Below are positions 1 through 19,093 of a stretch of 19,094 bases of DNA, one piece after another. Each line of letters opens with the position of its first letter. The stretch's first letter is position 1. Made by a program: the position numbers and the translations under genes. Location of the stretch: contig CAXBPH010000126.1 in NCBI GenBank assembly GCA_963977445.1, positions 1 through 19,094 of the forward strand, read 5' to 3'. The DNA comes from an uncultured bacterium (GTDB taxonomy: Bacteria; Hydrogenedentota; Hydrogenedentia; Hydrogenedentales; JAEUWI01). The notes under the pieces were generated by a model. That model did not search any database. It worked only from the letters and a program-made list of their open reading frames with translations, and was not told the origin of the DNA.

Positions 1-133
1 GTTCCCGTTGCAACACCATATGATCGCCGAAAATCGATGCGATGCCCAGCCTATCCTGAGCATTGGATAGGGGACTGCAGACGGCGACAAGGAACAGCAC
101 CAGGGCGATTGGGGTAGAACGCAACAAATACAT
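1..133 (-). CDS. 5' end of a secreted sialate O-acetylesterase-like (SGNH) protein, partial, runs off the window
   Basis: Not in the ORF track. Manual translation from ATG 133 (GGAG 7 nt upstream) gives MYLLRSTPIALVLFLVAVCSPLSNAQDRLGIASIFGDHMVLQRE: a signal peptide followed by the IFGDHMVLQR motif typical of the N-terminus of 9-O-acetylesterases. Confidence 0.8.
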   Translation of the reverse strand, partial: MYLLRSTPIALVLFLVAVCSPLSNAQDRLGIASIFGDHMVLQRE

Positions 134-262
134 AAGAAAGCTCCACAGGGTTTGGATAGTGCCGACAGTGTAACAAAGCACCGACACCATAGGGGAGCGT
201 GGTATGGCCACATATTTCATTTGAGTTGGTCCCGTAGAAAACTAAACGTAGACCCCAGGCGG

Positions 263-305
263 AAAAAAACAAAAAAACACCGAAAAGCAGATGCTTTCCG
301 GTGTT
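263..305 (-). terminator. Intrinsic terminator, probably the original tRNA-Val terminator now displaced beyond attR
   Basis: Inverted repeat AACACCGAAAAGC / GCTTTCCGGTGTT (276-288 / 293-305; one G-U pair on the - strand), with an A-rich run at 263-277 that is the U-tail on -. It lies 13 nt past the duplicated CCA end. Confidence 0.75.
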
Positions 306-315
306 CAATGGTTAT

Positions 316-363
316 AAATGGTGGGCGATACAAGAATCGAACTTGTGACCTCCACGATGTCAA
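316..363 (-). repeat. attR: 48-bp direct repeat, the duplicated 3' part of tRNA-Val
   Basis: AAATGGTGGGCGATACAAGAATCGAACTTGTGACCTCCACGATGTCAA is identical to 10864-10911. Confidence 0.97.
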
Positions 364-419
364 GCCGTATTTATAATAGAACAGTGCGACTATAACCGTA
401 TGGCATGCAACTACTTAGT

Positions 420-448
420 AAGTTAACACACTTTCTCTTCTATTGCAA
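420..448 (-). promoter_or_regulatory. Candidate sigma70 promoter pointing out of the island across attR
   Basis: On -: TTGCAA (448-443), 17 nt, TAACTT (425-420), with a TG extended -10. Confidence 0.4.
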
Positions 449-520
449 GTACCTTATTGCTTTCGGTTAATTTGTAGCGGTTTTCTTCGGTGTGGGGGTA
501 GTGTACCTGACGCTATACTT

Positions 521-1144
521 CTACCAGGCGCGTGATTCATCGCGCCTGATTTTCATTGCTTGACGTCGTCGCGTGTTACGGCCTGGGGAATCTATAGGAG
601 TATTCCCCATATGGTCTGAATGGGCCCACTTCATCGTGCTTGAACTTGTTGACGGCGGGCTGTCTAAAATTTCGACTTCGTCGGCCACTTCCCAAATACG
701 TTCGATAATCGTTTCGCGGTCTGTATTTGGATCAACCTGGTAGTAGGTCGCTAACTTCCGTAATTCTTGAATGGATATACGGTCTAAATCTACCCATTCA
801 TTTTCAGAAGGTAGATCGGGATTCTCTGACTCAGTCCCCGGGGCCTCTGTTGTTGGTAGAGGGCTGGGATTCCCTGACTCAACCTCTGGGACCTCTACTA
901 TCGGGAGAGTGCCGGGATTCCCTGACTCAACCTCTGGGGCCTCTGTTGTGGGTAGAGGGCTGGGATTCCCTGATTCAACCTCTGGGGTCTCTACGATCGA
1001 GAGGGGGCCAGAAGATTGACGCGCTTTGAACGCGTCCCTTCGACAACGATCATTGCAGTATCGCCGACGCCGGCCGGTTTCCGGCTGTTCGAGTGGATTC
1101 TCACAGAATTGACAGCGCCCTGGGGCTATTTTGGGTTCAATCAT
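521..1144 (-). CDS. 207-aa protein: N-terminal Cys4 Zn-finger-like motif, acidic Pro-rich 16-aa repeats, C-terminal HeH/Rho-N-like helical motif
   Basis: Start refined to ATG 1144 (AAGGGA upstream). Motifs: CQFC...GRRRRYCNDRCRR; (PEVESGNPSPLPTTEA)-like x4; LDRISIQELRKLATYYQVDPNTDRETIIERI. Confidence 0.7.
   Translation of the reverse strand: MIEPKIAPGRCQFCENPLEQPETGRRRRYCNDRCRRDAFKARQSSGPLSIVETPEVESGNPSPLPTTEAPEVESGNPGTLPIVEVPEVESGNPSPLPTTEAPGTESENPDLPSENEWVDLDRISIQELRKLATYYQVDPNTDRETIIERIWEVADEVEILDSPPSTSSSTMKWAHSDHMGNTPIDSPGRNTRRRQAMKIRRDESRAW
818..1009. repeat. Coding tandem repeat, 4 x 48 bp, in an ABAB (96-bp) higher-order pattern
   Basis: A GGGATTC(C/T)CTGA(C/T)TCA core starts at 818, 866, 914 and 962. 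Units alternate LPTTEA-type and L(P/S)IVE-type. Confidence 0.92.
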
Positions 1145-1223
1145 AGTTTCGTCCCTTATTTCTAGTTTCGTTTCGTCCCAAGTCGGTGCATGGGGGACTA
1201 ACAGTGCAAGAAGTAGTTGCAGT

Positions 1224-1265
1224 GCGTCGTCCGACCGAACCCTATGCCCCCCGCCCAGAGGACCC
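1224..1265 (-). other. Candidate lambda-like cos packaging site (cosQ plus cosN-like)
   Basis: - strand reads GGGTCCT (1265-1259), 23 nt ending GGGTTCG, then GTCGGACGACGC. Lambda reads GGGTCCT, 23 nt ending GGTTACG, then GGGCGGCGACCT. Confidence 0.5.
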
Positions 1266-1275
1266 ATCCATTTTT

Positions 1276-1341
1276 GGGCCTATTATTGGCCTGTTCATGC
1301 CCTGTTTCGTCCCTATTTTTGCCCTGTTTCAGGCCGATTCC
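1276..1341. repeat. Six degenerate tandem 11-bp units
   Basis: GGGCCTATTAT TGGCCTGTTCA TGCCCTGTTTC GTCCCTATTTT TGCCCTGTTTC AGGCCGATTCC. Confidence 0.8.
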
Positions 1342-1484
1342 AATCTGTGGGCCTGGAATCGCAATCGATAGGGTAGGCCAGATTCCGATAAATGTTACTA
1401 TGCGGAACGTTGCGTATCTCATAAGTATCCAAGCCACAATGCTTTGTGCGGTGTGTCGGGTAACTTAGGACAAAACGACCAACA

Positions 1485-1994
1485 TTAGACCGCTTGCGCT
1501 TCTCCATGAGCCTGCTGGTTCTTCGCCCTGTGGTGCAGGTACTTGAATTTGGAATCTATGGGTAGGTTGTCCTCAGCGAGTTCAATGACAGCCCGGTTCG
1601 TGGGCTTCACACCAAATGTATTATAGGCGTCCATTACTCGCCTGCAGCGAAAAGGTGTACTCTCGCCCAATAGGGAAGCCGACAATTCAGCGAGTTTTTC
1701 TTTCCTCTCCGCATCCGATGATGTGCTTTCACAAATAGCTTTCCAACCGTTTTCTAGGGCAACGCTGGCCCCTGGCTTCGATACGGTAGGCGGTACTATC
1801 GGCGAAATATTACGGGCGGGGCGGCTTCCTGAAAGGGAATCGTAGAGGTCGACCAGGTTGTCAATCTGATCCTGTGTAAGGCGCTCTCGATTAGTCCGGA
1901 AGTAGGTCATCACATCGGCACTATTTGAAAAGCGTGGAAAGCTCAATATCGGCTCGGCGTGTGGGTCTGGTTTATGCTCCTGAAAATGAAACAT
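1485..1994 (-). CDS. Hypothetical protein (169 aa) coupled to the rep gene
   Basis: ATG at 1994 overlaps the rep stop codon (TAATG), so the start is refined from 2066. No family recognised. Confidence 0.7.
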   Translation of the reverse strand: MFHFQEHKPDPHAEPILSFPRFSNSADVMTYFRTNRERLTQDQIDNLVDLYDSLSGSRPARNISPIVPPTVSKPGASVALENGWKAICESTSSDAERKEKLAELSASLLGESTPFRCRRVMDAYNTFGVKPTNRAVIELAEDNLPIDSKFKYLHHRAKNQQAHGEAQAV

Positions 1995-3028
1995 TACGAT
2001 ACAGCCCTCGATGACGTCGGCTTCGGTGGTAAGCTCTTTCCGTAAGGTGCAAGGAATTTTCCGCAAGCACTGGCGATGTATGCACCGGGTTTTTTGAGCC
2101 TCCCAAGATCCTTCGTCCGTCTTGTAGCGTCATCGCCACACTGTTCGGCATAGGTGATTGCTTCAGAAAGCCGATCAAGGCCTCCACAATCAACCATGAG
2201 GCCATAAACCGTTCTCCACCATGGTCGATAGCCTGGGGGGTCAGAGGATGCCTCTAGAAGCCGCTGAAATAGTTCTTTGTTGGCGTGTTCGCGTGGAATC
2301 GTGCCCGGTATGGCCAATACATCTGAAATTGAAACCGCCGATCCCGCCCCGCTATTCGAGTTCGGTGGAGTTGTGGCCACTCTCGGTGATCGGTTGCTTC
2401 TTCCCTGCCCCTGCGAACTCGGTTCGGTAGGGTGGGGTTCGGCATGGTTCGGTAGGGTAGGGTTCGGCTCGGCTCGGCTCGGCTCGGTAGGCGCGTTGGC
2501 GCGCGTCAACGCGCGTTCATTCTCTGGGTAGGGCGTTGACGCCCGAGTAGATAAACTTGAATGATTGTCAGTGGGAATGGCGGAAGGGGGAGGCGGATCG
2601 TTTGGGCATTGCTCTCGCTCAGCGACCATCCTTTTGAAGTCCCGTTCTATAGCGGGCCGGTCTTCTTTTCGTAATTTGGTCAATTTAGGGACGTTACCAC
2701 TTGCGAAGAAACGTCGCTCTTTCGCGAGTCGGTCATGTATGGAATCTTCGCAATGGTCTGACCAATCATGAACAACAATACGGTGTGAGCCGTGCTCATC
2801 AAGCCAACCGCGTTTTAACAGGACTTCGATCAGTTCATCAGGATCAGACTCATACCCGATTGATAGCGCTATTTCCTCGTTGGTAAACTTCCCCAGGTTG
2901 CCTTCAGGGGCGTTAAGGGCTGTGAAGTCCCATAAGTCTTGAAGTAGCCCCTTACCGGCGTATTTGGGAAGCTTGAGATCCCTCAGCATCAACAGAAATT
3001 TAGCTAATCCGTCTGTGCCTTTTTTCAT
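1994..3028 (-). CDS. Phage-type replication initiator / replisome-organiser-like protein (344 aa)
   Basis: N-terminal GLLQDLWDF..NAPEGNLGKFTNEEIA..IGY..DPDELIEVLL..GWLD....VVHDWSDH pattern seen in phage initiators, a central low-complexity linker encoded by DNA repeats (lambda O-like layout), and a small C-terminal domain. Confidence 0.7.
   Translation of the reverse strand: MKKGTDGLAKFLLMLRDLKLPKYAGKGLLQDLWDFTALNAPEGNLGKFTNEEIALSIGYESDPDELIEVLLKRGWLDEHGSHRIVVHDWSDHCEDSIHDRLAKERRFFASGNVPKLTKLRKEDRPAIERDFKRMVAEREQCPNDPPPPSAIPTDNHSSLSTRASTPYPENERALTRANAPTEPSRAEPNPTLPNHAEPHPTEPSSQGQGRSNRSPRVATTPPNSNSGAGSAVSISDVLAIPGTIPREHANKELFQRLLEASSDPPGYRPWWRTVYGLMVDCGGLDRLSEAITYAEQCGDDATRRTKDLGRLKKPGAYIASACGKFLAPYGKSLPPKPTSSRAVS
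2421..2544. repeat. Pentamer array and GC-rich palindromic motifs inside rep (candidate origin)
   Basis: 14 tandem GG(T/C)NN pentamers at 2421-2490, then GCGCGT at 10-bp spacing (2491, 2501, 2511) and GCGTTGRCGC or its complement at 2493, 2503 and 2533. Confidence 0.8.
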
Positions 3029-3062: not shown

Positions 3063-3120
3063 CACTACGTTTGAGTTTTGCCGCCCCAATTCTTCGAAGG
3101 CCTTGGGGTGGCGTTTTTTT
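3063..3120 (+). ncRNA. Candidate ~57-nt antisense RNA against the rep leader
   Basis: Lies between the promoter above and the hairpin GCCGCCCCAA / TTGGGGTGGC (3080-3089 / 3103-3112; the G-U pair works only on +) followed by T7 at 3114-3120. The 5' end is inferred. Confidence 0.5.
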
Positions 3121-4756
3121 AAAGTACTTCTACCGCATTCGCGCGCGCGCCGCCTGGTTGGGCTATAGCACCACCACCTGCCGTATTCTTCGCGATTTCC
3201 TTCAACAGCCGATGGATTTCTGGATCAGCGTTTGAAGACGTAGAAGAAGACGGCGCTTGTGAAGCATTGGCCGTTCCGCCCAAGCTGCTCCGATAGTTTG
3301 AATATTCGTTCTGAGTCATCAAGTGAGGCGGCATCTGGCGATTTCTTACCTCTTCAAGGGTTGTCCCAACATTGAAGGGGCCCGCCAAGATATCAGCAGG
3401 GCTAAACGACGCCCCCCGTTCAGCTCGGGCCATATCGGCGTCTCTCTTCTCAATCCATTTTTGCCGCATCTGGGCGCGAAACATTTCCCCATCCGTCTGA
3501 CTGGCAACAATATCCCGGCCTTCTTCGGCAAAACTTGGGCTAAGTACACCCAACACCTTCCCGCCAAAATCCCCCAGCGGACCAGCCTTGCCTCCAGTAG
3601 ATACAGCGACGTTCGCCGCCCCGAGATTCGCCCGTTTAATCATTTTCGCGTAGAATGATTCTGAAACCACATCATCGGCCAACATGGGCGCATTCTCGAT
3701 AGTGGACTGAATTGCCGTCATGTCACGTGCAAAAAAATGGGCAGGATCTGATAGTCGAGTACGAAGCTTTTCTAAGGCTGTATCGGTTTTCCCTGTAATC
3801 GACTCTAAGTGCTTCATGGATTGGGCAATATCGTCCACCGAATCGGCCATAATATTCGCAGACACAACCGATTCTTTACCGAAAACTTTGGCCATTTGCT
3901 TTCCATTGGTTTCAAAAAGCGTGTCCAACTGCCGAAGCTTATCGATATACGTTCCAGTTAAGGTGATGCCCTTCTCCTGGGCTTCCTGCATGATCAGGAA
4001 GACGTTTCGCATGCCCGTGAAAACCTTCTCAACGGAACCTGCCTTCTTTGTCGCCCCGATGATTGATCCTAAGACTTCATCCATATTTAAGCCCGTCACC
4101 TGGCCGGCAGAAAAGAGCTCCGGGGCGCGTGTGGCCAGGTCTTCAAAGCGGAGTGAGGCTTGCTCTTGGGTATACATTAGTTTGTTTTGTAACTGATTGA
4201 CGTTCGTCACCTCTTTTCCATAAATCTGATAGGCCTTCGTCATCAGGTTTTGCGCGGTCACCAGGTCGCCACCTGTCACCTCAGCGAGCTCGAGAGTCTC
4301 TTTCTTTAAGTCTCCGATTTCCGCAGCGGTCAAATTGCCCGTGTTCGATTTCAAGTCAAATAGGAAACCTGAAATATCCTTCACCCCCGCGCCAAGAGAA
4401 ATAGCCGTGGAGGTGATTTCACGGCGTAAGCCTTGTAGGTTCCCAGCGTTATCTCCAAGGGAAGAAAGGGGCGTCAGAGCCTTTTCAAGCTCCACGCGCT
4501 TCGAAACGAATTGATCTGCCCCTTGGTTGAGACTAGAGAAAACGGTTCCCAAACCTTGAAAACCCGCGTAGCCCGCGATGCTCAAACCTATCTTTTTTCC
4601 CATTTTTTGGAATGATGTACCCAACATGTCTGACTGACGGGAGAGTGCCTTCATATCACTGAGTTGGGCTTTATAGATTTCCTTCACAATGCCACGAGCA
4701 GCCGTAGTATTCCCTGTCGTGAATTCCATTTTTACTTCGGTATCGCCTTTACCCAT
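3119..4756 (-). CDS. Phage tail tape-measure protein (545 aa)
   Basis: Start refined to ATG 4756 (GGAAGG upstream; TAATG overlap with the previous stop). Ala/Gly-rich helical protein with a TP901-type core: LELAEVTGGDLVTAQNLMTKAYQIYG...LRFEDLA...AGQVTGLNMDEVLGSI...FTGMRNVFL. Confidence 0.85.
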   Translation of the reverse strand: MGKGDTEVKMEFTTGNTTAARGIVKEIYKAQLSDMKALSRQSDMLGTSFQKMGKKIGLSIAGYAGFQGLGTVFSSLNQGADQFVSKRVELEKALTPLSSLGDNAGNLQGLRREITSTAISLGAGVKDISGFLFDLKSNTGNLTAAEIGDLKKETLELAEVTGGDLVTAQNLMTKAYQIYGKEVTNVNQLQNKLMYTQEQASLRFEDLATRAPELFSAGQVTGLNMDEVLGSIIGATKKAGSVEKVFTGMRNVFLIMQEAQEKGITLTGTYIDKLRQLDTLFETNGKQMAKVFGKESVVSANIMADSVDDIAQSMKHLESITGKTDTALEKLRTRLSDPAHFFARDMTAIQSTIENAPMLADDVVSESFYAKMIKRANLGAANVAVSTGGKAGPLGDFGGKVLGVLSPSFAEEGRDIVASQTDGEMFRAQMRQKWIEKRDADMARAERGASFSPADILAGPFNVGTTLEEVRNRQMPPHLMTQNEYSNYRSSLGGTANASQAPSSSTSSNADPEIHRLLKEIAKNTAGGGAIAQPGGARANAVEVL

Positions 4757-4977
4757 TATTCGGTTTCCTTCCAAACTTGCGCGATGAATTTACCGAGTCC
4801 AAAACGATGACGGCCGTTCCTGCAGCTCTTGCAAAATTGGTTTACCTGGTCGATTTTCGAGCTCAAAAGGATCAAGATTCTTTGTATGCTTAGAAGCCAA
4901 CTCAGCGGAATCATGAAAGTAACCCGGTCACCAATAGGGAGGCCCCTCGAGGCGTTCCAGCGTTGAATGAGGCCCAT
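4756..4977 (-). CDS. Small hypothetical protein (73 aa) directly upstream of the tape measure
   Basis: ATG 4977 lies 1 nt after the DUF1580-like stop, and its TAA overlaps the tape-measure ATG, so it fills the gap exactly. Confidence 0.55.
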   Translation of the reverse strand: MGLIQRWNASRGLPIGDRVTFMIPLSWLLSIQRILILLSSKIDQVNQFCKSCRNGRHRFGLGKFIAQVWKETE

Positions 4978-4978
4978 A

Positions 4979-5311
4979 TCACATACCCAAATCTTGAAGT
5001 TTACGGTGGGCGGTTTCGGCGGCTTCAGTTCGTTGTCGGTCGGTCCGTGGCACAGGTAATTGGATGGGATTTCTGGAAGAACTTCGCAGCCTGAAATAGG
5101 CGGCGTCGGCGGCTTTGAGTTCGTCAAAAAAATCGTTTACATCTTTGTCAGCAACAAGAATTCGCCGCCCGCAACGAATATGTTTCAAGTGAATTCGGTC
5201 ACCTGATTTGACTTGGAGGCCTTCCCGACACCAACGCCATAAGGATTGTGGCGATGTTTTGACAGGGATATCGCGGGCAACTTGGGCTAACGTTCTATAT
5301 TCTTCGATCAT
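4979..5311 (-). CDS. DUF1580-like winged-HTH protein (excisionase/AlpA-like)
   Basis: TLAQVARDIP..TSPQSLWRWCREGL......IHLKHIRCGRRILV..KDVNDFF and a C-terminal RQRTEAAETAHRKLQDLG helix; AGGAG RBS. Confidence 0.75.
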   Translation of the reverse strand: MIEEYRTLAQVARDIPVKTSPQSLWRWCREGLQVKSGDRIHLKHIRCGRRILVADKDVNDFFDELKAADAAYFRLRSSSRNPIQLPVPRTDRQRTEAAETAHRKLQDLGM

Positions 5312-5435: not shown

Positions 5436-6542
5436 CTACTGCCCGAAGCTTCCCCACACCGCGCGGGGATCCAGGCGGGTACCGCCAAAAACGTGTTTAA
5501 CCTTCCAAGTGAGCACATCGGTCTGAATGCGTTTGATATCGCGGGCATCTGGGGCGCTTACCTGGGGAGCGTCGTAGCCCACCAAGGTCCCAAACTCACC
5601 GGCTGGAATATTGGCGGGGTCGGTGAACAGTGACCAGCACGTCGAACCAATGGTGCCAGATGTCGAAAGGACAGGGATCCAAGGATTAACCAGAAGTTTG
5701 ATTCCGAGATCCGACAGAACATTCTTTGTCCCGTGCGATTCTGCGACACCTGGGCCACTTCCAGACCCATCAACCACATGGTTAAGACTGATCGAGTTCA
5801 GCAATTGCATTGCCTTGATCATGAGCCCAGGTCCCACCATCAGGAATTTCGGCATGGAAATGATCGGGTCACCTTCGGTGTCGGTGTAACCAAGCATTTG
5901 TCCTACTGCTGTGGCCAAGTTATCTATCGTCAGAGGTAGGCTACTGGGCCCACTTGGTTGCGCACTATAAAAGGCATCAATTGGGCCACCAGCATCGAAA
6001 AACAAAGAGGTCATGAAGGCCTCCTCACTCCGCAGCGCGCCTCTGACCATACGTTCTGGAAGCGTATTAAAAACCCCTACCGGGTCATTGGTGATGGATT
6101 CCTCGGTGGCCTCAAAAAGCGCCCCGTGCTTACCCACAAAATAACGTTCGGTCTGTTCTTGCGACACGGTTATCTGTGGATATTCGCCATTCTCTTTGAC
6201 GAGCGGCAAGGTCGATTCAGCGCCTTCGAAGCGAGTCGCTTCGACGGAATTATAGTTCGGGATATTTTTGCGGGTGCGCACCACCGACTTCATCACTGAA
6301 GACGAATGGCGATAGAGGGTCTGCATTTGGCGCGCTGCGACATCGGCGATTAATACAGAGGCACTGCCTGTCGTAGTGGCGAATTGCCGAATTCTATCGG
6401 CTCGGCGCGCGGGGTCTCCGCAATCGCCCCATAAGACGTTGCTTGTCGCGGTCAGTTCGGCTTCAGAATGACATCGGCTTCGGCGGGAATCTTCCAGCGC
6501 CCAACCTTGGGAAAGATCAATTATAGTGGGTTCGTTTCTCAA
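5436..6542 (-). CDS. Major capsid protein, Mu gpT-like (HK97 fold), 368 aa
   Basis: VKENGEYP; KHGALFEATEESITND.VGVF..LP..M.RGA.RSEE; PKFLMVGPGL..KA.QLLNS; WSLFTDP; GTLVGYDAPQV; DVLTWKVKHVFGG..LDPR. Confidence 0.88.
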   Translation of the reverse strand: MRNEPTIIDLSQGWALEDSRRSRCHSEAELTATSNVLWGDCGDPARRADRIRQFATTTGSASVLIADVAARQMQTLYRHSSSVMKSVVRTRKNIPNYNSVEATRFEGAESTLPLVKENGEYPQITVSQEQTERYFVGKHGALFEATEESITNDPVGVFNTLPERMVRGALRSEEAFMTSLFFDAGGPIDAFYSAQPSGPSSLPLTIDNLATAVGQMLGYTDTEGDPIISMPKFLMVGPGLMIKAMQLLNSISLNHVVDGSGSGPGVAESHGTKNVLSDLGIKLLVNPWIPVLSTSGTIGSTCWSLFTDPANIPAGEFGTLVGYDAPQVSAPDARDIKRIQTDVLTWKVKHVFGGTRLDPRAVWGSFGQ

Positions 6543-6553
6543 GTAGAGATCTC

Positions 6554-6982
6554 CTAGAGGGTCAAAAGTTTGATGGGTATGTTGGCGGCGGTGGCAGAGC
6601 CCGACAATGCCGCCAGGGCAATTCCATATGGTGTATGGCCAGTGGTCGCATCGAGGGAGATAACACCGGTTGAGTCGTCAATATAGAGGGTTGCACCCAT
6701 GACGACGTTCGCGGTCGAATCATCATCACTTGCCACGACGGGTAGGGTGAAAATTCCGCAAGTTTGGATTACACAATCCGCGCCCACACCGCTTGGTGGA
6801 GTAACACAAATCCCTGTGAAACCACCAGCGACGACGACGGGATCGTAGATTTCAACCGGCGAATTGGGCGCGGTCAACGCGGATTCAGGGACCGTGATTA
6901 ATGACCCGCCCTGGCTCGGGGCTGGACTGTGTTCATAACCAGCCGCAAGGCCGGTCGGGTACATGGTTTTGGGGTATCCCAT
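6554..6982 (-). CDS. DUF2190-like capsid decoration/cement protein
   Basis: PVVVAG..TGICVT...GADCVIQTCGIFTLP...VMGATLYIDD...TT...PYGIALAA.....IPIKL; lies between the protease and capsid genes. ATG 6982 chosen for AGGAG spacing; TTG 6991 is possible. Confidence 0.78.
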   Translation of the reverse strand: MGYPKTMYPTGLAAGYEHSPAPSQGGSLITVPESALTAPNSPVEIYDPVVVAGGFTGICVTPPSGVGADCVIQTCGIFTLPVVASDDDSTANVVMGATLYIDDSTGVISLDATTGHTPYGIALAALSGSATAANIPIKLLTL

Positions 6983-6987
6983 TTTTT

Positions 6988-8001
6988 TCAATCTCCTGTG
7001 TGGGCGGCTTCTTCCGCCATTTTTTGGGCCTGTTCTTCGCTGTAGCCCTGGCTCAAGAATCGACGAAGAAATGATTCTTTCAAAGTCTCGCCGCCCTGGC
7101 TAAACTCGCCGCCCATGGGTTCCACGTTCTTAATATCAATCGCCGCCGATGTGGCCTCCAGCAATTCCATCTGGTGAAGCTTGTTGATACGTTCAAATTC
7201 TTTGTCGGATCGCTCGATCACTTGTTCAAGAAAATTCACCACCTGGCAACCACTAGCGATGGCCTCCAAAGCAACTTCTTGCAAATGAGCTTTACCACGA
7301 GAAAACTTGACAATATAAGCAACGCGATCCTTTTCGGTGGCGGGATCGGCGGGTTCAAGTTCGGATGTATTGGCCATCCCAAGGAGTTTTGCTTGGTGGC
7401 TCAGGACGCCCTGTGCGTGGGTGACGAATCCAGGATCTGTCAGCGCCTTTTTAAGGTCGACCATCGTTCTCGAATCGAGATTGACCCCTTTGGGGAGTTC
7501 ACCAAAAAGACCATCAGTAGCGGCTGGATCGTCAACAATATCGACCGCGTGCAAAGCATCAACACGACATAGGCGATATGAGACTTTATCTTCATCTTCA
7601 ACTCTTTCGGATTCCACGGTAGAGATGGAGACTGAAGCGCCCAGTAGACCCGGGTCAGACTTAGCGACGGACAAGATATGGTCTTTCGCGGTTTTCGGTG
7701 CCGCATCGGACCAGTGCAAATCGGCTACTACGACATCACCCGAACGGCGAAAGTCCTTAAATCGCCCCAGTGCGGTTCCAAACCCAGGCGAACAAATGTT
7801 CGGGTGATTGGCGCGGCATTTCACACCCTGGGGTGAAGCGTTGCCCAGGTCAATGACCTGGTCAAGGGTGGTTTCATCGATCATCAGATCGTGACCCCGC
7901 GCCTTGCCCATCGCGATAACGTGGACACCCTTCAAAACATCTATGTCACCGGTGATGACGGTGCCTTTAAGGGCCGGTGTTTCCAGGGTAAGTTCAGCCA
8001 T
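6988..8001 (-). CDS. Prohead maturation protease with a C-terminal scaffold-like region (337 aa)
   Basis: GVHVIAMGKARGHDLMIDETTL; GVKCRANHP (candidate catalytic His); LGRFKDFRR.GDVVVADLH; LGASVS (candidate catalytic Ser); LHAVDIVDDPAA; acidic helical C-terminal half; position before the decoration and capsid genes. Confidence 0.78.
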   Translation of the reverse strand: MAELTLETPALKGTVITGDIDVLKGVHVIAMGKARGHDLMIDETTLDQVIDLGNASPQGVKCRANHPNICSPGFGTALGRFKDFRRSGDVVVADLHWSDAAPKTAKDHILSVAKSDPGLLGASVSISTVESERVEDEDKVSYRLCRVDALHAVDIVDDPAATDGLFGELPKGVNLDSRTMVDLKKALTDPGFVTHAQGVLSHQAKLLGMANTSELEPADPATEKDRVAYIVKFSRGKAHLQEVALEAIASGCQVVNFLEQVIERSDKEFERINKLHQMELLEATSAAIDIKNVEPMGGEFSQGGETLKESFLRRFLSQGYSEEQAQKMAEEAAHTGD

Positions 8002-8698
8002 CAGTCAGGGCCTTAAGAGCCTGCGCGGCGATTTTGCGTTCTTCTTTCGACAGGTACAGATCGCCAGATAATTCATTGAGGCGTTCAAGATCATTGTTTT
8101 TGATGGCTTGATTCAGGTAGCGCCGATGCGAAGCGATAGTTTGTGTGATGGCATCGGGGCGGCTGGTAAAGGGAGGGAGGGGGCAGAGACGGTATCCAAT
8201 AGCATCCCAAAAGTCAATCCAACCCTTCGGGCCACAAGTTGAGCCTAGGGCAAACAGAGCTTGATCCAAAAGGTCCAGTTCTTGAGAATTCACAGCTTGA
8301 AGATTGTCCATAAATTCAGTGGATGTTTCTTTGATTACCCAAGTGTCAACCCAATCAATAATTGCCGCATAAACCTCGTGGCGACGAATATTAGTTAGGA
8401 TATGGGGCTGAATGGGTTTGGTCCCTGCTTCAATCCCAATTAATGTGGCCCTGTGACACCCAAGTATTACCGCGAAACCATCTTGGGTGTATCCCATTGC
8501 TTGACGCAATAGTTTGACCCGCAATGCTACGTGCGCTAATGAGTGTTTGAGTTTGTCGTGGATGGAGAACTTAACCCCATCATCCCCCTCTATCGGGGAA
8601 GTTTTCTTGGGTCGTGGAACGTTCATAGAGTCCAGTTTGCAGAACCCCTTGTACCACAATTCGGGATTAGGTGGGCAGAGTAGATATTCTATTCTCAA
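7994..8698 (-). CDS. XRE-family HTH regulator with an unknown C-terminal domain (234 aa)
   Basis: RVKLLRQAMGYTQDGFAVILGCHRATLIGIEAGTKPI; overlaps the protease start by 8 nt. The start codon is uncertain. Confidence 0.75.
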   Translation of the reverse strand: MRIEYLLCPPNPELWYKGFCKLDSMNVPRPKKTSPIEGDDGVKFSIHDKLKHSLAHVALRVKLLRQAMGYTQDGFAVILGCHRATLIGIEAGTKPIQPHILTNIRRHEVYAAIIDWVDTWVIKETSTEFMDNLQAVNSQELDLLDQALFALGSTCGPKGWIDFWDAIGYRLCPLPPFTSRPDAITQTIASHRRYLNQAIKNNDLERLNELSGDLYLSKEERKIAAQALKALTDG

Positions 8699-9590: not shown

Positions 9591-10751
9591 TTATCCGAGC
9601 TCTTGGGCTATTTGTATGGCTAACTCGGTATTCTTTTCGGCGTAGAGCTCGGTGGTGTTGATTCGGCTATGCCCCAGCGCAACGGAGGCTTCGATACCGG
9701 AAATCTTGCGCACTTCGGTGGCGTGGTTGTGACGTAGGCGATGGGGGTGCCAACGGGGCACCTTGGCGGCGTCACATGCGCGGCGGACTGCTCGAGCGTA
9801 TGAATCCTTGTCGTAATGGTCGCGGACTACGCGGGCGGTTTGGCGGGTATCGGCCTTTTGATTTGGGCGGCGATGGGTTCGGGCTTGGGACTTTTGTTCT
9901 GTGATGGCGTCCCGGGGACTAAACAGGTAACTGGAAATGGGTCTATCATTCAGAAAGGGCCGGATCACCTCTTGGGCTTTCGGCCCCATATAGAGGGTCC
10001 GTGTCTTTCCGTGATGAGCCGTCTTGTGTCTGCCCAGGTGGACTATCCATATCGCTTGCTCCGTGTTGATATCAATAGGACGTAAAAACACTACTTCAGA
10101 GCTTCGGGCACCCGTCAATAGTTGGAGTTGAATCAATGCCCATATTTGGCGGGATACATGATCCTTAATAGCGTGTACGTGGTCCAGGGGCACAGGTAGC
10201 ACCCTTTTGGGCTCTTTCGCTTGCGACCGCCCCGCTCGAAGCCCTTCGACCGTGGACAATGCCTGGTATACAGCGGGGCCGATCAACTCCTCAGAGACCG
10301 CCCAACGGAAGATCTTTTTCACTTCCCCTGTATAGTCGTTGATAGTCTTCCTGGCTAACCCTCGATTGATCCATGTCTCTCGAAGTGCTTTCAGGGATAG
10401 GGGGGAGAAGTCAGCCGCTTCGATATCGCCGTAAATTTTGCGCACATCGGCAATTACGAGCTTTACCCGGTCCAGAGATCGGGCCGCGTTGCCCTCTGGA
10501 GTTCTGTACCACTGTTCGGCGTGGTTCCAATAGCGGGCAAGAACTTCCACCACCAAAACCCCATCATCCTGGCGAAGGGGTAGGGCCCGACCAGAAGCAA
10601 GCCATTCGGACAAAGTCCGGTCATACTTCATTTGGGCAGAAGATGTGCCATACTTGCCCAAATAGACACGTTTTCCGGAAAGATTTACATAGGCTTGCCC
10701 GCTGGCCTTGTGTAATCGGATGGTGGGTATGTTTTTTTTGCTAAAAAGCAT
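9591..10751 (-). CDS. int: Tyrosine recombinase/integrase (386 aa)
   Basis: Catalytic set R (TGARSSE), K (HKT), H-x-x-R (HRLRH), H (LGH), Y (TELYA); N-terminal arm-binding-type region HKASGQAYVNLSGKRVYLGKYG; adjacent to the att/tRNA. Confidence 0.96.
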   Translation of the reverse strand: MLFSKKNIPTIRLHKASGQAYVNLSGKRVYLGKYGTSSAQMKYDRTLSEWLASGRALPLRQDDGVLVVEVLARYWNHAEQWYRTPEGNAARSLDRVKLVIADVRKIYGDIEAADFSPLSLKALRETWINRGLARKTINDYTGEVKKIFRWAVSEELIGPAVYQALSTVEGLRAGRSQAKEPKRVLPVPLDHVHAIKDHVSRQIWALIQLQLLTGARSSEVVFLRPIDINTEQAIWIVHLGRHKTAHHGKTRTLYMGPKAQEVIRPFLNDRPISSYLFSPRDAITEQKSQARTHRRPNQKADTRQTARVVRDHYDKDSYARAVRRACDAAKVPRWHPHRLRHNHATEVRKISGIEASVALGHSRINTTELYAEKNTELAIQIAQELG

Positions 10752-10753
10752 AA

Positions 10754-10820
10754 AGGCGGTGCGACTCCAAGGGTGATCCGGGTATGTACCCGGAATTGTC
10801 CTTTTTGTGTCGCACCGCCT
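10754..10820. promoter_or_regulatory. Long nested inverted repeat abutting the int start codon
   Basis: AGGCGGTGCGAC / GTCGCACCGCCT (10754-10765 / 10809-10820) enclosing TCCGGGTA / TACCCGGA (10777-10784 / 10787-10794). Confidence 0.7.
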
Positions 10821-10863
10821 ATTAGCGGGAAACCAATCTAAGTGATTGATTCGACTTGGTTTA

Positions 10864-10911
10864 AAATGGTGGGCGATACAAGAATCGAACTTGTGACCTC
10901 CACGATGTCAA
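10864..10911 (-). repeat. attL: 48-bp direct repeat covering the tRNA-Val 3' part
   Basis: Identical to 316-363. Confidence 0.97.
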
Positions 10912-10943
10912 CGTGGCGCTCTAACCAACTGAGCTAACCGCCC
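10867..10943 (-). tRNA. tRNA-Val (GAC)
   Basis: GGGCGGTTAGCTCAGTTGGTTAGAGCGCCACGTTGACATCGTGGAGGTCACAAGTTCGATTCTTGTATCGCCCACCA: full cloverleaf, anticodon GAC, encoded CCA. Confidence 0.98.
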
Positions 10944-14599: not shown

Positions 14600-15148
14600 T
14601 AGGGGTTTCTCCGTTCCGATAACTATTATTGAGGTCGCTTCAAAGTTGGACCTCCGCACGCATATATATCTTATTTCGATGAATAGTTCCAACTATTTTT
14701 TATGCTTCAGAATAAAATGGACAAAACCGGACGTGTCAGCCGACGGAATCGCGGGTTTTCTCCACAATTTCCTGCTCCCTCCCCAGGGGGCGTCTCACAG
14801 GTCCCACAAGTCTTTTACCCTGCCACGCCCGCCGCTGCGCCCGACCACTTCATGAATCCCCGTCGTGTAAATTTCTTCATGCAATTCCCCTTTTTCGAAC
14901 GTGGTGTCCCTTTAAATCAACTATAACGTTCGAGATGGGGGATTGGCAGCGGGACTGTCATCTTTCCCGCCCCAGGCGGGAAAGGGACTGTACCGGCAGT
15001 ACGACACGGCGTCGAGTCAACGCCAGTCTCTATCGTTCCCACTGAAAAAGCAGTCCCGGTGTCGCGGGGCGCCTTCTTCGGGGGTACAGGCTCCCGCCTC
15101 AGGCGCGTCTTCGACCCTCGATTCTTGCCACGTAACTGAGAAACGGCA

Positions 15149-17020: not shown

Positions 17021-19093
17021 CTATGCGTCGGGAAAATTAAACCGGACGGCCTTGGGCTGGCCGTCTACCAACCCAACCTTGACGGCTTTCACATCCTGGT
17101 GGGTCGTGCAAAAGCTGCGCACTTCATCTTCACCCATAATGAGGAAGGTCGTGCTCAGCGCATCGGCCTGGGCACCCGTGGGGCAGATGCTCATGGCACC
17201 GAGGGTCTCATCCACGGCACCACCGGTGCGGGGGTCGTAGATGTGGGAGAAACGCTGCCCTTCTACTTCGAAAGAGCGCCCTTCGCCGGAGGAGGTGGAA
17301 AAAGCCTCGTCCTTGATGACCACCCGGTCGACGAAATCTTCCGCCACGTCGTATTTCTTGTCGATGATGACGTTCCAGCCGGGGGTGCCTGACGGGGCTC
17401 CAATGGCAACAAAGGTGCTGTCACCGCCGCTGAGGAGCGCACATTCGATGTCGTTTCCTTTGAGGACTTGCGCCGCCACGTCGAGGGCATAGCCTTTGCC
17501 TATGCCACCGAAGTCGAGGCGCAAGCCCGGCTTGGTATAGAAAACAGTCCGTGCGTCAAAATCGATTTGGACCTTGTCGAGTCCCACCCGCTCGAGGGTC
17601 GCCGTGATTTCTTCTTGCGTGGGGATTCGGCCCTGTTTCTTATAGACCCCCCACAGGTCGAGGAGGGGACCGACGGTGACGTCAAAAATTCCCCCCGTGT
17701 CGTCATAGGCCTGTTTGGAGACCTTCAACAGGCCCATCACATCGGGATGGACCTTGACCGGGGCCGTGGCGGCCTCCCGGTTTAATTTGGCGGTGAAACT
17801 GTCGACGCGCCACGTGCTGATGCGCCGTTCGAGCTGTTCGATGCGATCCAGCGCGGCCAAGCCGATTTCGGTCAGCCGCGTCCGGTTATACGCCCCCGTA
17901 GGGGCGTATAACGTGATTTCAAAACGGGTACCCATGAGATCACGGGTCACTATTTGCTGCTCGGCAGTGGATAGTGCGCTCTCCGCAGCATGGGTCGGGG
18001 GAAAAAGGAGGCTCGCCGTGGCGTCTTCGGCCTTCTCATCCTCCGCCGGTACGGCCGCAGGCTCAGCCGAACTCCCCAGATTTTTCTGGAGGTCCGCCCA
18101 GTTTTTCTGTAAACCAAAGAATCCGGCAACGCTCATGATGAGCACAGCCGCAATCAGGGTGACGTTCCAGAAAATACGTGCCGCACCTTCGGGACGTCCC
18201 TCACCCATATACTTCTTCGAGTTCAAGAGGATGATGAAGCCAATCACCGCAATGGGCATGAGGGGGGCGGCCAGGCTGGAGGCCGTCACGGCGGCATACC
18301 ACGGGAAAGGAATCAGCACGCCGATGATACCAACGGCAGGGAGGAGGGAGAACCAGAATTTGGCCTTGCCCTGATATTCGAAGCCGAAGAGTTCGCAGCC
18401 GATGAAGCCGCTGGCCAGCATGTGGGTGATGATGGTGGAGATACCAATGGCAAACATGCCCAGCCCGATAAGCAGGAGGGACAAGGTGGAACCGAGGGTC
18501 TGATCCAGGACCGGCAGGATCTCTCGAATATCCTTGACCGCTTCCGGAGCCAGTTGTCCGGGGTCCGGGCCGATGGTGTTGGCTACGGCAATCATCATGA
18601 AGGCCGTGGCGAAGAGAAAGGGAACCACCATGCCGGAAAGCAGGTCGAAATAGGCCAATTCCCGGTGTTCCTTGCCCCAATTCTTGTTGAGCAGGGAATA
18701 GGGGTAGAGGAAAACCATATTGATACCGACGGCCGCCGCAATACCACCGACGACGGGCTTAATCGCCGACTCGGGGAATCCGAATTCCATGACATGCTGG
18801 AAAAAGCTGATACCCGTCAGGCCAAGGATGAGTTCCTTGAAATTAATGCCCGTGGAGATGGCAACGACGGCAAAGGCCGCCACGATGCCCCAAACGAGAA
18901 GTTTTACCAGGGTCTCGTAAATTTTGAGTCCCTTGGCACCCGTGCTGTAGAGGTAACAGACAAAGCCTGCCCCCGCCAGGACGACGAGCCCGATGAAGCC
19001 CCGTCCGTAGTTGCCGCTGAGGTCGATACCCACCCCATTGGCCAGTTCCACGGCCCCATTGGCGGTAAGGGAATATTGGGGGATATGCCATAG
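17021..19093 (-). CDS. Fusion of an NRAMP/MntH-like membrane transporter and an ApbE FAD:protein FMN transferase; 5' partial
   Basis: The frame stays open to the window edge (LWHIPQYSLTANGAV...). Multi-TM domain with AAAVGINMVFLYPYSLL and FAIGISTIITHML; then ApbE motifs MGT, FDVTVGPLLDLWG, LDFGGIGKGYALD, SHIYDPRTG, ADALST. Confidence 0.85.
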   Translation of the reverse strand, partial: LWHIPQYSLTANGAVELANGVGIDLSGNYGRGFIGLVVLAGAGFVCYLYSTGAKGLKIYETLVKLLVWGIVAAFAVVAISTGINFKELILGLTGISFFQHVMEFGFPESAIKPVVGGIAAAVGINMVFLYPYSLLNKNWGKEHRELAYFDLLSGMVVPFLFATAFMMIAVANTIGPDPGQLAPEAVKDIREILPVLDQTLGSTLSLLLIGLGMFAIGISTIITHMLASGFIGCELFGFEYQGKAKFWFSLLPAVGIIGVLIPFPWYAAVTASSLAAPLMPIAVIGFIILLNSKKYMGEGRPEGAARIFWNVTLIAAVLIMSVAGFFGLQKNWADLQKNLGSSAEPAAVPAEDEKAEDATASLLFPPTHAAESALSTAEQQIVTRDLMGTRFEITLYAPTGAYNRTRLTEIGLAALDRIEQLERRISTWRVDSFTAKLNREAATAPVKVHPDVMGLLKVSKQAYDDTGGIFDVTVGPLLDLWGVYKKQGRIPTQEEITATLERVGLDKVQIDFDARTVFYTKPGLRLDFGGIGKGYALDVAAQVLKGNDIECALLSGGDSTFVAIGAPSGTPGWNVIIDKKYDVAEDFVDRVVIKDEAFSTSSGEGRSFEVEGQRFSHIYDPRTGGAVDETLGAMSICPTGAQADALSTTFLIMGEDEVRSFCTTHQDVKAVKVGLVDGQPKAVRFNFPDA

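Follow-up and report, generated by a model that had tools for sequence, protein, structure and literature searches.

A conserved noncoding block with the lambda cosQ heptamer, a candidate cos-type packaging site of a tRNA-Val satellite-like element in Hydrogenedentota

A conserved noncoding block of about 70-90 nt, built around the heptamer GGGTCCT, was identified on the minus strand of a 10.5-kb element integrated at a tRNA-Val gene of an uncultured marine bacterium from the phylum Hydrogenedentota. The same heptamer, known as cosQ, ends packaging in phage lambda. The block is conserved and spread among satellite-like elements of the phylum, and it is present upstream of Nu1-like and gpA genes in one prophage and, in part, on a second contig encoding gpA. 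Judged from these comparisons of sequence, the block is probably the cos-type packaging site of a tRNA-Val satellite, used by a helper phage with a Nu1/gpA-type terminase. The DNA under study, referred to below as the window, is one whole contig of 19,094 nucleotides, and the genomes compared with it are metagenome bins.

Gene content of the tRNA-Val element

The element spans 10.55 kb between 55-bp direct repeats, and every one of its genes lies on the minus strand (Table 1). The gene order runs from the integrase through a 127-aa ORF, an HTH regulator, a 337-aa protein, the decoration protein, the major capsid protein, an excisionase-type HTH protein, a tape-measure-like protein, a replication-initiation-like protein and a 193-aa ORF to a 340-nt gap that holds the site, which is followed by a gene for a zinc-ribbon/SAP-like protein. 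Homologues of the replication-initiation-like protein were found in 22 of 133 genomes of the order. The tape-measure-like gene (PhageMin_Tail) is the sole tail gene; it is conserved, with 41-44% identity, in the related elements of genomes G003 and G006. None of the 12 ORFs scanned matched a family of the terminase large subunit, portal or tail proteins; the unassigned ORFs are all of 337 aa or less, none being big enough for a terminase or a portal. The family scans confirm the absence of a terminase, which a preliminary description of this DNA had asserted, and extend it to the portal. Since the element has neither, recognition of the block would have to fall to the terminase of a helper.

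Features by which phage satellites are recognized are found together in this element: an integrase, att repeats at a specific site, a small size, a replication gene of its own and an incomplete set of virion genes. Satellite P4 and the cfPICIs are likewise integrative satellites of 10-12 kb, with their own rep gene and with head-related genes that alter or build a capsid, and they share a cos site with the helper. P4 has no capsid gene, and cfPICIs have the head module in full, portal, connectors and terS included, whereas the head genes of the window element are limited to the capsid, decoration and 337-aa proteins (the last a probable protease/scaffold), accompanied by the tape-measure-like gene, with no portal or terS. 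To our knowledge, a capsid gene set without portal or terS has been described for no class of satellites. The nearest phage relatives of the capsid protein are at most 32% identical to it and point to no helper lineage. Marine VEIMEs (PMC9618062) resemble the window element in being marine, small, integrase-bearing and phage-parasitising; in the available portion of that source they are reported to lack a major capsid gene and to be packaged as concatemers, with no cos site described there, whereas the window element has a capsid gene.

Several other features of the window were observed. A 42-nt inverted repeat, 90% complementary, has its arms 5 kb apart, in the replication-initiation-like gene (2307-2348) and in the gene for the 337-aa protein (7339-7380); both arms are transcribed from the same strand, and the resulting RNAs could pair, and the repeat is absent from the G003 relative. 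From the integrase start to the att core, the window (10800-10857) and G003 (L018 11750-11847) are 76-78% identical, despite the different tRNAs used (Val and Pro), and this interval probably holds integrase arm sites or the int promoter. Outside the element, a host gene at 17021-19051 encodes an Nramp-like membrane domain fused to an ApbE flavin-transferase domain.

Table 1. Features of the element and of the block region, in window coordinates
Feature	Position	Strand	Remarks
attL, 55-bp repeat of the 3' part of tRNA-Val	309..363	.	direct repeat
Zinc-ribbon + SAP-like DNA-binding protein gene	521..1144	-	true start ATG 1144; homologues in G003, G006, G005
Two exact GGGACGAAAC repeats (1146-1155 and 1170-1179)	1146..1179	-	between block and start codon
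Conserved noncoding block, candidate cos region	1192..1281	-	about 70-90 nt
Proposed 12-nt cohesive end	1224..1235	-	6/12 to lambda; 11/12 identical in G003
GGGTCCT heptamer	1259..1265	-	identical to lambda cosQ; constant core of block
Third exact GGGACGAAAC repeat	1304..1313	-	inside 11-bp-phased repeat array 1272-1339 (families D1, D3)
193-aa ORF	1485..2066	-	no family; the ORF in the corresponding place of G003 is not a homologue
Replication-initiation-like protein	1994..3028	-	phrog_9474 1.2e-13
Tape-measure-like or minor-tail-like protein	3119..4774	-	PF10145 1.3e-9; tape-measure PHROGs
Excisionase/AlpA-type HTH protein	4979..5311	-	phrog_66 0.001; HTH_17 0.021, below cut-off
Major capsid protein	5436..6542	-	PF25209 Phage_capsid_4 1.1e-31
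Head decoration (cement) protein	6554..6991	-	PF09956 3.9e-10
337-aa protein, protease/scaffold position	6988..8001	-	no family; structure model pLDDT 43, unusable
HTH regulator	7994..8698	-	HTH_3 and HTH_31 below cut-offs; repressor PHROGs
Tyrosine integrase	9591..10751	-	PF00589 1e-14; phrog_1 2.9e-36
attR (10857-10911) within tRNA-Val(GAC) (10867-10943)	10857..10943	-	direct repeat

The conserved block and its likeness to lambda cos

The flagged site is the upstream edge of the conserved block, in which an A-tract, the heptamer, a pyrimidine run, a G-run and then a part containing CGACGC follow one another; the heptamer, the A-tract 5-6 nt upstream of it and the G-run form the constant core. 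A syntenic element, bounded by 54-bp att repeats, lies at tRNA-Pro in G003, a genome of the same genus. Aligned globally, the two elements are 47% identical, and the best 60 nt (1192-1251) reach 82%; here an exact run of 18 nt, longer than any other in the alignment, occurs together with one of 13 nt. The ORF directly upstream of the block is non-homologous between the two elements, and the intergenic gap of G003 consists of the block and 36 nt on either side. In a search with window positions 1-3000, no second copy of the site was found in the same genome.

The longest ORF of the region begins with an ATG at 1267 and overlaps the heptamer; because the G003 and G006 homologues of the zinc-ribbon/SAP protein start at the position of ATG 1144, the site is noncoding. 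No coding signal was found in the block. A coding reading was considered and rejected: three frames are open in both elements, but the similarity ends at the block edges and is seen in two frames at once.

Direct reading of the minus strand gives GGGTCCT at 1265-1259, a 23-nt spacer at 1258-1236 and a 12-mer at 1235-1224, and lambda (NC_001416) shows the layout GGGTCCT, 23 nt and 12-nt left end; the letters and positions quoted in the preliminary description, as well as the lambda layout given there, are exact. In this register the window matches lambda at 7/7 positions of the heptamer, 10/23 of the spacer and 6/12 of the end. The warning given with the original observation, that a 7-mer can occur by chance, was well placed: GGGTCCT is found once in the window against 2.73 expected, and at least one copy was present in 188 of 200 shuffles. 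The 35 nt that follow the heptamer agree with lambda at 16 positions, against an average of 8.9 for the 35-mers of the window (fraction reaching 16, 0.0072), and the fraction reaching the end match of 6/12 is 0.069 in the window. Scored against shuffles, the likeness of the window to lambda beyond the heptamer is not above background, the score being reached by 273 of 300. It is the conservation of the heptamer and the block in related elements that lifts the observation above chance. With the cos regions of lambda and N15 (NC_001416; available parts of PMC4669245 and PMC9026076), the window shares an exact copy of cosQ, followed by G+C-rich DNA, by a CGAC core some 30 nt downstream and, at about 120 nt from the heptamer, by a gene whose product is a DNA-binding protein.

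A more specific proposal, that the 12-mer is a cohesive end produced by a nick at 1236/1235, found no support in the comparison. In lambda-like phages, as given in the accessible part of PMC4669245, the cohesive end's left half (bp 1-6) is conserved and the right half varies freely, and CG dinucleotides flank both nicks. The window 12-mer agrees with lambda at 2/6 positions in the left, selected half and at 4/6 in the right. Its match therefore lies mainly in the half that is free to vary, and neither the proposed end nor the nick, which had been put forward purely by inference, is supported. At the nicks predicted in the register of the preliminary description, CG stands on the 5' side and AC on the 3' side, so that the 3' CG is missing, and no twofold symmetry at the proposed nick was seen by direct reading. 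A GGGCGG stretch lies 2 nt after the window heptamer, instead of 23, so that the true register may differ from the one proposed. The proposed end is not conserved in G006 or in the group of elements from G070 and G024.

The zinc-ribbon/SAP gene stands at the position of terS or rpp, 121 nt after the heptamer. A SAP domain was detected in the G003 homologue of its product; the family comprises only 8 proteins, none of them named, and no name for the protein was obtained from a protein atlas, NCBIfam or the homologue search. Within the gene, three tandem 48-nt units (817-1008) encode an acidic, proline-rich repeat linker that is absent from the G003 homologue. The distance from the heptamer to the next start codon is 110 nt in G003, 106 nt in G005 and 120 nt in the G086 phage described below. 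In N15, terS starts at bp 89, and in PICI-C, rpp starts at bp 102 (PMC9026076, in the part available); with the lambda cosQ offset of 30 assumed for N15, arithmetic gives an N15 heptamer-terS distance of about 119 nt. In the register proposed originally, the zinc-ribbon/SAP start of the window falls at bp 92.

Around the block, GGGACGAAAC is present in three exact copies within 170 nt, and with up to two mismatches it occurs 19 times in the whole window, against 22.3 expected. Neither GGGACGAAAC nor the 11-bp-phased repeats are conserved in G003. In the same register, the two downstream copies correspond to bp 57-66 and 81-90; the R3 site occupies bp 50-65 in lambda, and the proposed R3 of PICIs bp 55-63 (PMC9026076, available part). 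The agreement is one of position and says nothing of binding: the downstream repeats stand where a cosB or operators might be expected, and operators would account for them just as well.

Distribution of the block and its relation to gpA-type terminases

All 135 genomes of the phylum were scanned with a profile of 3 copies (R1) and then of 5 copies (R2), matching the window at 1189-1272 and 1214-1281, respectively. With R2, the block is recovered from G000, G003, G005, G006, G070 (3 copies) and G024 with E-values from 4e-14 to 1.5e-5; the further copies recovered by the profiles are located on contigs G005:C476, G070:C17, G070:C228, G070:C35 and G024:C60, and G030:C151 matches the block only at E 0.0115. 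All nine block copies lie in small elements with an integrase plus a Rep-like gene or a primase/helicase. A tRNA gene is found beside or within the element in seven of the nine, and none in the stretches fetched for G006:C291 and G030:C151. The elements use four kinds of replication module: Rep-like, O-like with DnaC-like, D5_N primase-helicase, and phrog_239 primase/helicase. In G006:C291, the capsid module and the zinc-ribbon/SAP gene of the window are combined with a different replication module, and this element carries GGGTCCT, the pyrimidine run and the G-run upstream of the zinc-ribbon/SAP gene. Some members of this satellite range are minimal (integrase, primase and site), and others have capsid genes without a portal. 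The expectation that the motif would be conserved in related elements was borne out, the heptamer being the core of the block in nine elements and exact in seven of them (GGGTCCC in G003 and AGGTACT in G070:C228).

Early profile matches outside elements and weak R2 matches lie mostly inside long open frames and were treated as chance; three of these matches (G113:C195, G088:C112 and G089:C133) look like true copies. Two of the genomes concerned, G113 and G088, are also among those with gpA matches, that of G088 falling below the family cut-off. An exact-pattern scan with the 20 best-conserved specified bases of the block gave 0 matches in IMG/VR, where alignments of the rep and capsid proteins also yielded no related loci. 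In GTDB genomes, the same pattern returned only the G003 record and one unrelated match, and a metagenome scan returned 6 loci, 1 identical to the window and 5 in unrelated coding DNA. Contigs tend to break at or near the block: a TARA scaffold (L053) ends at window position 1176, and G036:C73 (L150) starts inside the block. These breaks are not evidence of physical ends, because a repeat common to several elements breaks assembly likewise.

Two of the elements have features of their own. The one on G070:C17 (L097 5890-11550) is a 5.6-kb element at tRNA-Val(GAC) with an integrase 34% identical to that of the window, and its genes encode an HTH_17 protein, a 329-aa winged-helix protein and a terS-like protein, followed by the block and a convergent SPP1-gp7/Mu-F-like head morphogenesis gene. 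Between the terS-like gene and the block that follows it are 176 nt. In phages, relatives of this gene occupy the left genome end as gene 1, and a small terminase is named in 3 of 12 matching records. As a tie between the block and that type of terminase, this gene was discarded: its 18 relatives in 11 genomes have no block nearby, and the type pairs with a non-gpA TerL in G064, so that the adjacency says little. The PHROG matched by L097 8132-8695, phrog_645, is labelled 'Rnase E'; its members here are gene 1 at the left end of Arthrobacter phages, several of them named small terminase, and in G064:C317 a relative adjoins a large terminase. It looks as if a wrong label had been propagated. 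On G024:C60 (L146), the block, an integrase gene and a primase/helicase gene lie between two tRNA-Leu(AAG) genes, at 7440-7524 and 14848-14932 and 7.4 kb apart; these two tRNA genes would be a target duplicated after integration.

The packaging reading was accompanied by the expectation that the site would also be found just upstream of a terS-gpA pair in phages of the host lineage. Matches to gpA-type terminases occur in 12 of the 135 genomes of the phylum, 11 of them above the family cut-off. With filters off, the five-sequence profile R2 was run over the 12 gpA loci (36,139 bases), and its best match, on G086:C29 (E 0.022), comprises an A-tract, the exact heptamer, TCCC and a G-run. The motif lies 120 nt upstream, on the same strand, of a 209-aa ORF with a lambda-Nu1-like N-terminus (Phage_Nu1, E 0.047, below the cut-off), and this ORF overlaps the beginning of a 659-aa protein in which GpA_ATPase and GpA_nuclease domains were matched. 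The motif is surrounded by 30 kb of phage-sized genes on one strand, and a homologue of the window rep gene precedes it by 3.2 kb, an order also seen in the window. The G086 version is closer to lambda than that of the window, in that Nu1-like and gpA genes follow it and in that it resembles lambda cos beyond the heptamer (score reached by 4 of 300 shuffles); its gpA is at most 28% identical to enteric gpA proteins. The link to G086 is a 25-nt profile match of 10.7 bits to the only complete phage example, and it runs through the family profile, the pairwise likeness of the window block and the G086 site beyond the heptamer not being significant alone (score reached by 55 of 500 shuffles).

Another contig with gpA, G036:C73, opens immediately behind the heptamer position, in the part of the block that comes next (5 of 500 shuffles reach the similarity), and encodes a strong gpA at 684-2636. 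Among gpA loci with about 1,500 nt of upstream sequence, the motif is present in 1 of 5; another 4 loci have too little upstream sequence. In the genus of the window, no match to GpA_ATPase, TerL_ATPase or Terminase_6N was found in 5 genomes, including three with capsid-type elements, no gpA was found in 9 genomes, and no block copy was found outside elements. Window positions 1140-1480 had no match among 50,697 phage records (INPHARED), and an IMG/VR scan with the phage-type motif gave 0 matches. Two Firmicutes gpA phages do not have the exact heptamer upstream of terS (0 of 2), and the heptamer is therefore not universal for gpA systems. The helper-side site is thus seen as a motif match in G086 and a partial one in G036, and none was found within the genus. 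Packaging by a gpA-type helper through the site is favoured by the conserved core and these two gpA loci, whereas no gpA phage was found in the 9 genomes of the genus.

Alternative readings and biological meaning

Of the other readings, the one that survives best, though we regard it as unlikely, takes the block for a helper-responsive or host promoter, an operator or a leader of the zinc-ribbon/SAP gene (and, for G006, one serving the capsid operon). The block would then be a homologue of a late promoter that phages have upstream of terS, with the GGGACGAAAC repeats as operators of an autoregulator. Helper-activated late promoters are common to P4 and P2; in four elements the zinc-ribbon/SAP start follows the block at 50-120 nt, the exact GGGACGAAAC copy at 1146-1155 overlaps the ribosome-binding site, and in G006 the zinc-ribbon/SAP gene heads the capsid operon. 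However, no sigma-70-type promoter was matched in the window or in G003, and a terminator scan gave nothing relevant; exact runs of 18 and 13 nt exceed the needs of a promoter; and the motif occurs once per element and is not repeated at other operons. The block is not simply a promoter, because in G070:C17, G070:C35 and G024:C60 it lies between convergent genes, with no gene after it on its own strand.

The position of the block, which consistently follows the replication genes in their orientation, invites the suggestion that it is a replication origin or a loading site for the primosome or a host factor. PICI origins lie 3' of rep, and in the window the block adjoins three exact 10-mers and the 11-bp-phased repeats. 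Origins co-vary with their initiators, whereas this block goes with four unrelated initiator types; moreover, the iterons themselves are not conserved in G003, and the G086 prophage site adjoins terminase genes. Neither an origin nor a promoter fits easily with a block that accompanies four unrelated initiators and that in some elements has no gene after it, and an origin appears improbable.

The remaining two readings are improbable as well. A small regulatory or structured RNA (an immunity RNA, or a processing or termination signal) could draw on a hairpin-like stretch at 1194-1231 that keeps its pairs through two A-to-G changes giving G-U pairs, but none of the folds is better than shuffles (z-scores 0.47 to -1.25), 0 of 21 predicted pairs show a compensatory double change, Rfam gave no match at E up to 1 and conservation of the hairpin part does not extend to G006, G005 or the G070 group, so that the RNA reading was rejected as unsupported by fold, covariation and Rfam tests. 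Alternatively, the lambda likeness may be chance, the block being functional without any relation to cos and the G086 match arising by coincidence in G+C-rich DNA, as might be argued from a heptamer expected 2.7 times per window in a scan that reads very many windows, a G086 match of only 10.7 bits and a nil likeness of the window to lambda beyond the heptamer; against this, the heptamer fell in the conserved core of a block that makes up about 0.2% of the window (about 70-90 nt of 19,094 bases on two strands), the test at gpA loci, set beforehand in the preliminary description, matched the expected place, strand and distance, and a second gpA contig starts inside the block.

The preferred reading, a cos-type packaging site, can be compared with the cos-type PICIs (EcCICFT073-type, cos-rpp), as far as these are described in the available parts of PMC9026076 and PMC6739421. 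Like the window element, they are integrative and without a terminase, and they carry cosQ/cosN-like DNA just upstream of a gene for a small DNA-binding protein; they depend on a Nu1/gpA helper, to which the presumed helper of the window element is likened; and, within those parts of the sources, both are without the phage-type R3-I1-R2-R1 cosB. The cosQ/cosN of these PICIs is nearly identical to that of the helper, whereas the window has a motif-level match to a distant prophage only. The downstream protein is the winged-helix Rpp in the PICIs and combines a zinc ribbon with a SAP motif in the window. Unlike the cos-type PICIs, the window element encodes capsid, decoration and tape-measure-like proteins, and its host belongs to an uncultured phylum.

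If the block is a packaging site, the element would excise and replicate with its own initiator, and a capsid shell of its own would be formed from the capsid and decoration proteins with the probable protease/scaffold. A Nu1/gpA-type helper terminase would then recognize the block, cut the concatemer there and pack unit lengths, and the zinc-ribbon/SAP protein, together with the element-specific GGGACGAAAC repeats, may set the specificity of packaging. The helper, the cutting, the role of the zinc-ribbon/SAP protein and all nick positions are what we infer from this arrangement. A broader scenario, which we offer tentatively as a possibility, is that a Nu1/gpA cos architecture that includes the heptamer is common to Hydrogenedentota phages and has been captured by a population of tRNA-integrated satellites. 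In the capsid type of these satellites, the zinc-ribbon/SAP protein would bind the repeats (at about bp 57-90) and redirect the helper large terminase, as a non-homologous analogue of Rpp.

We know of no cultured member of the Hydrogenedentota and of no phages described for the phylum. If the packaging reading is true, it would provide the first handle on phage-satellite-helper systems in this phylum, and the zinc-ribbon/SAP protein would be a candidate for a new kind of packaging-redirection protein. It would also raise the question of whether the cosQ heptamer is an ancient recognition element of gpA or has arisen twice. A signature of 25-70 nt would then link the satellites to cos phages of the Nu1/gpA type as their kind of helper, and viromes could be screened for it.
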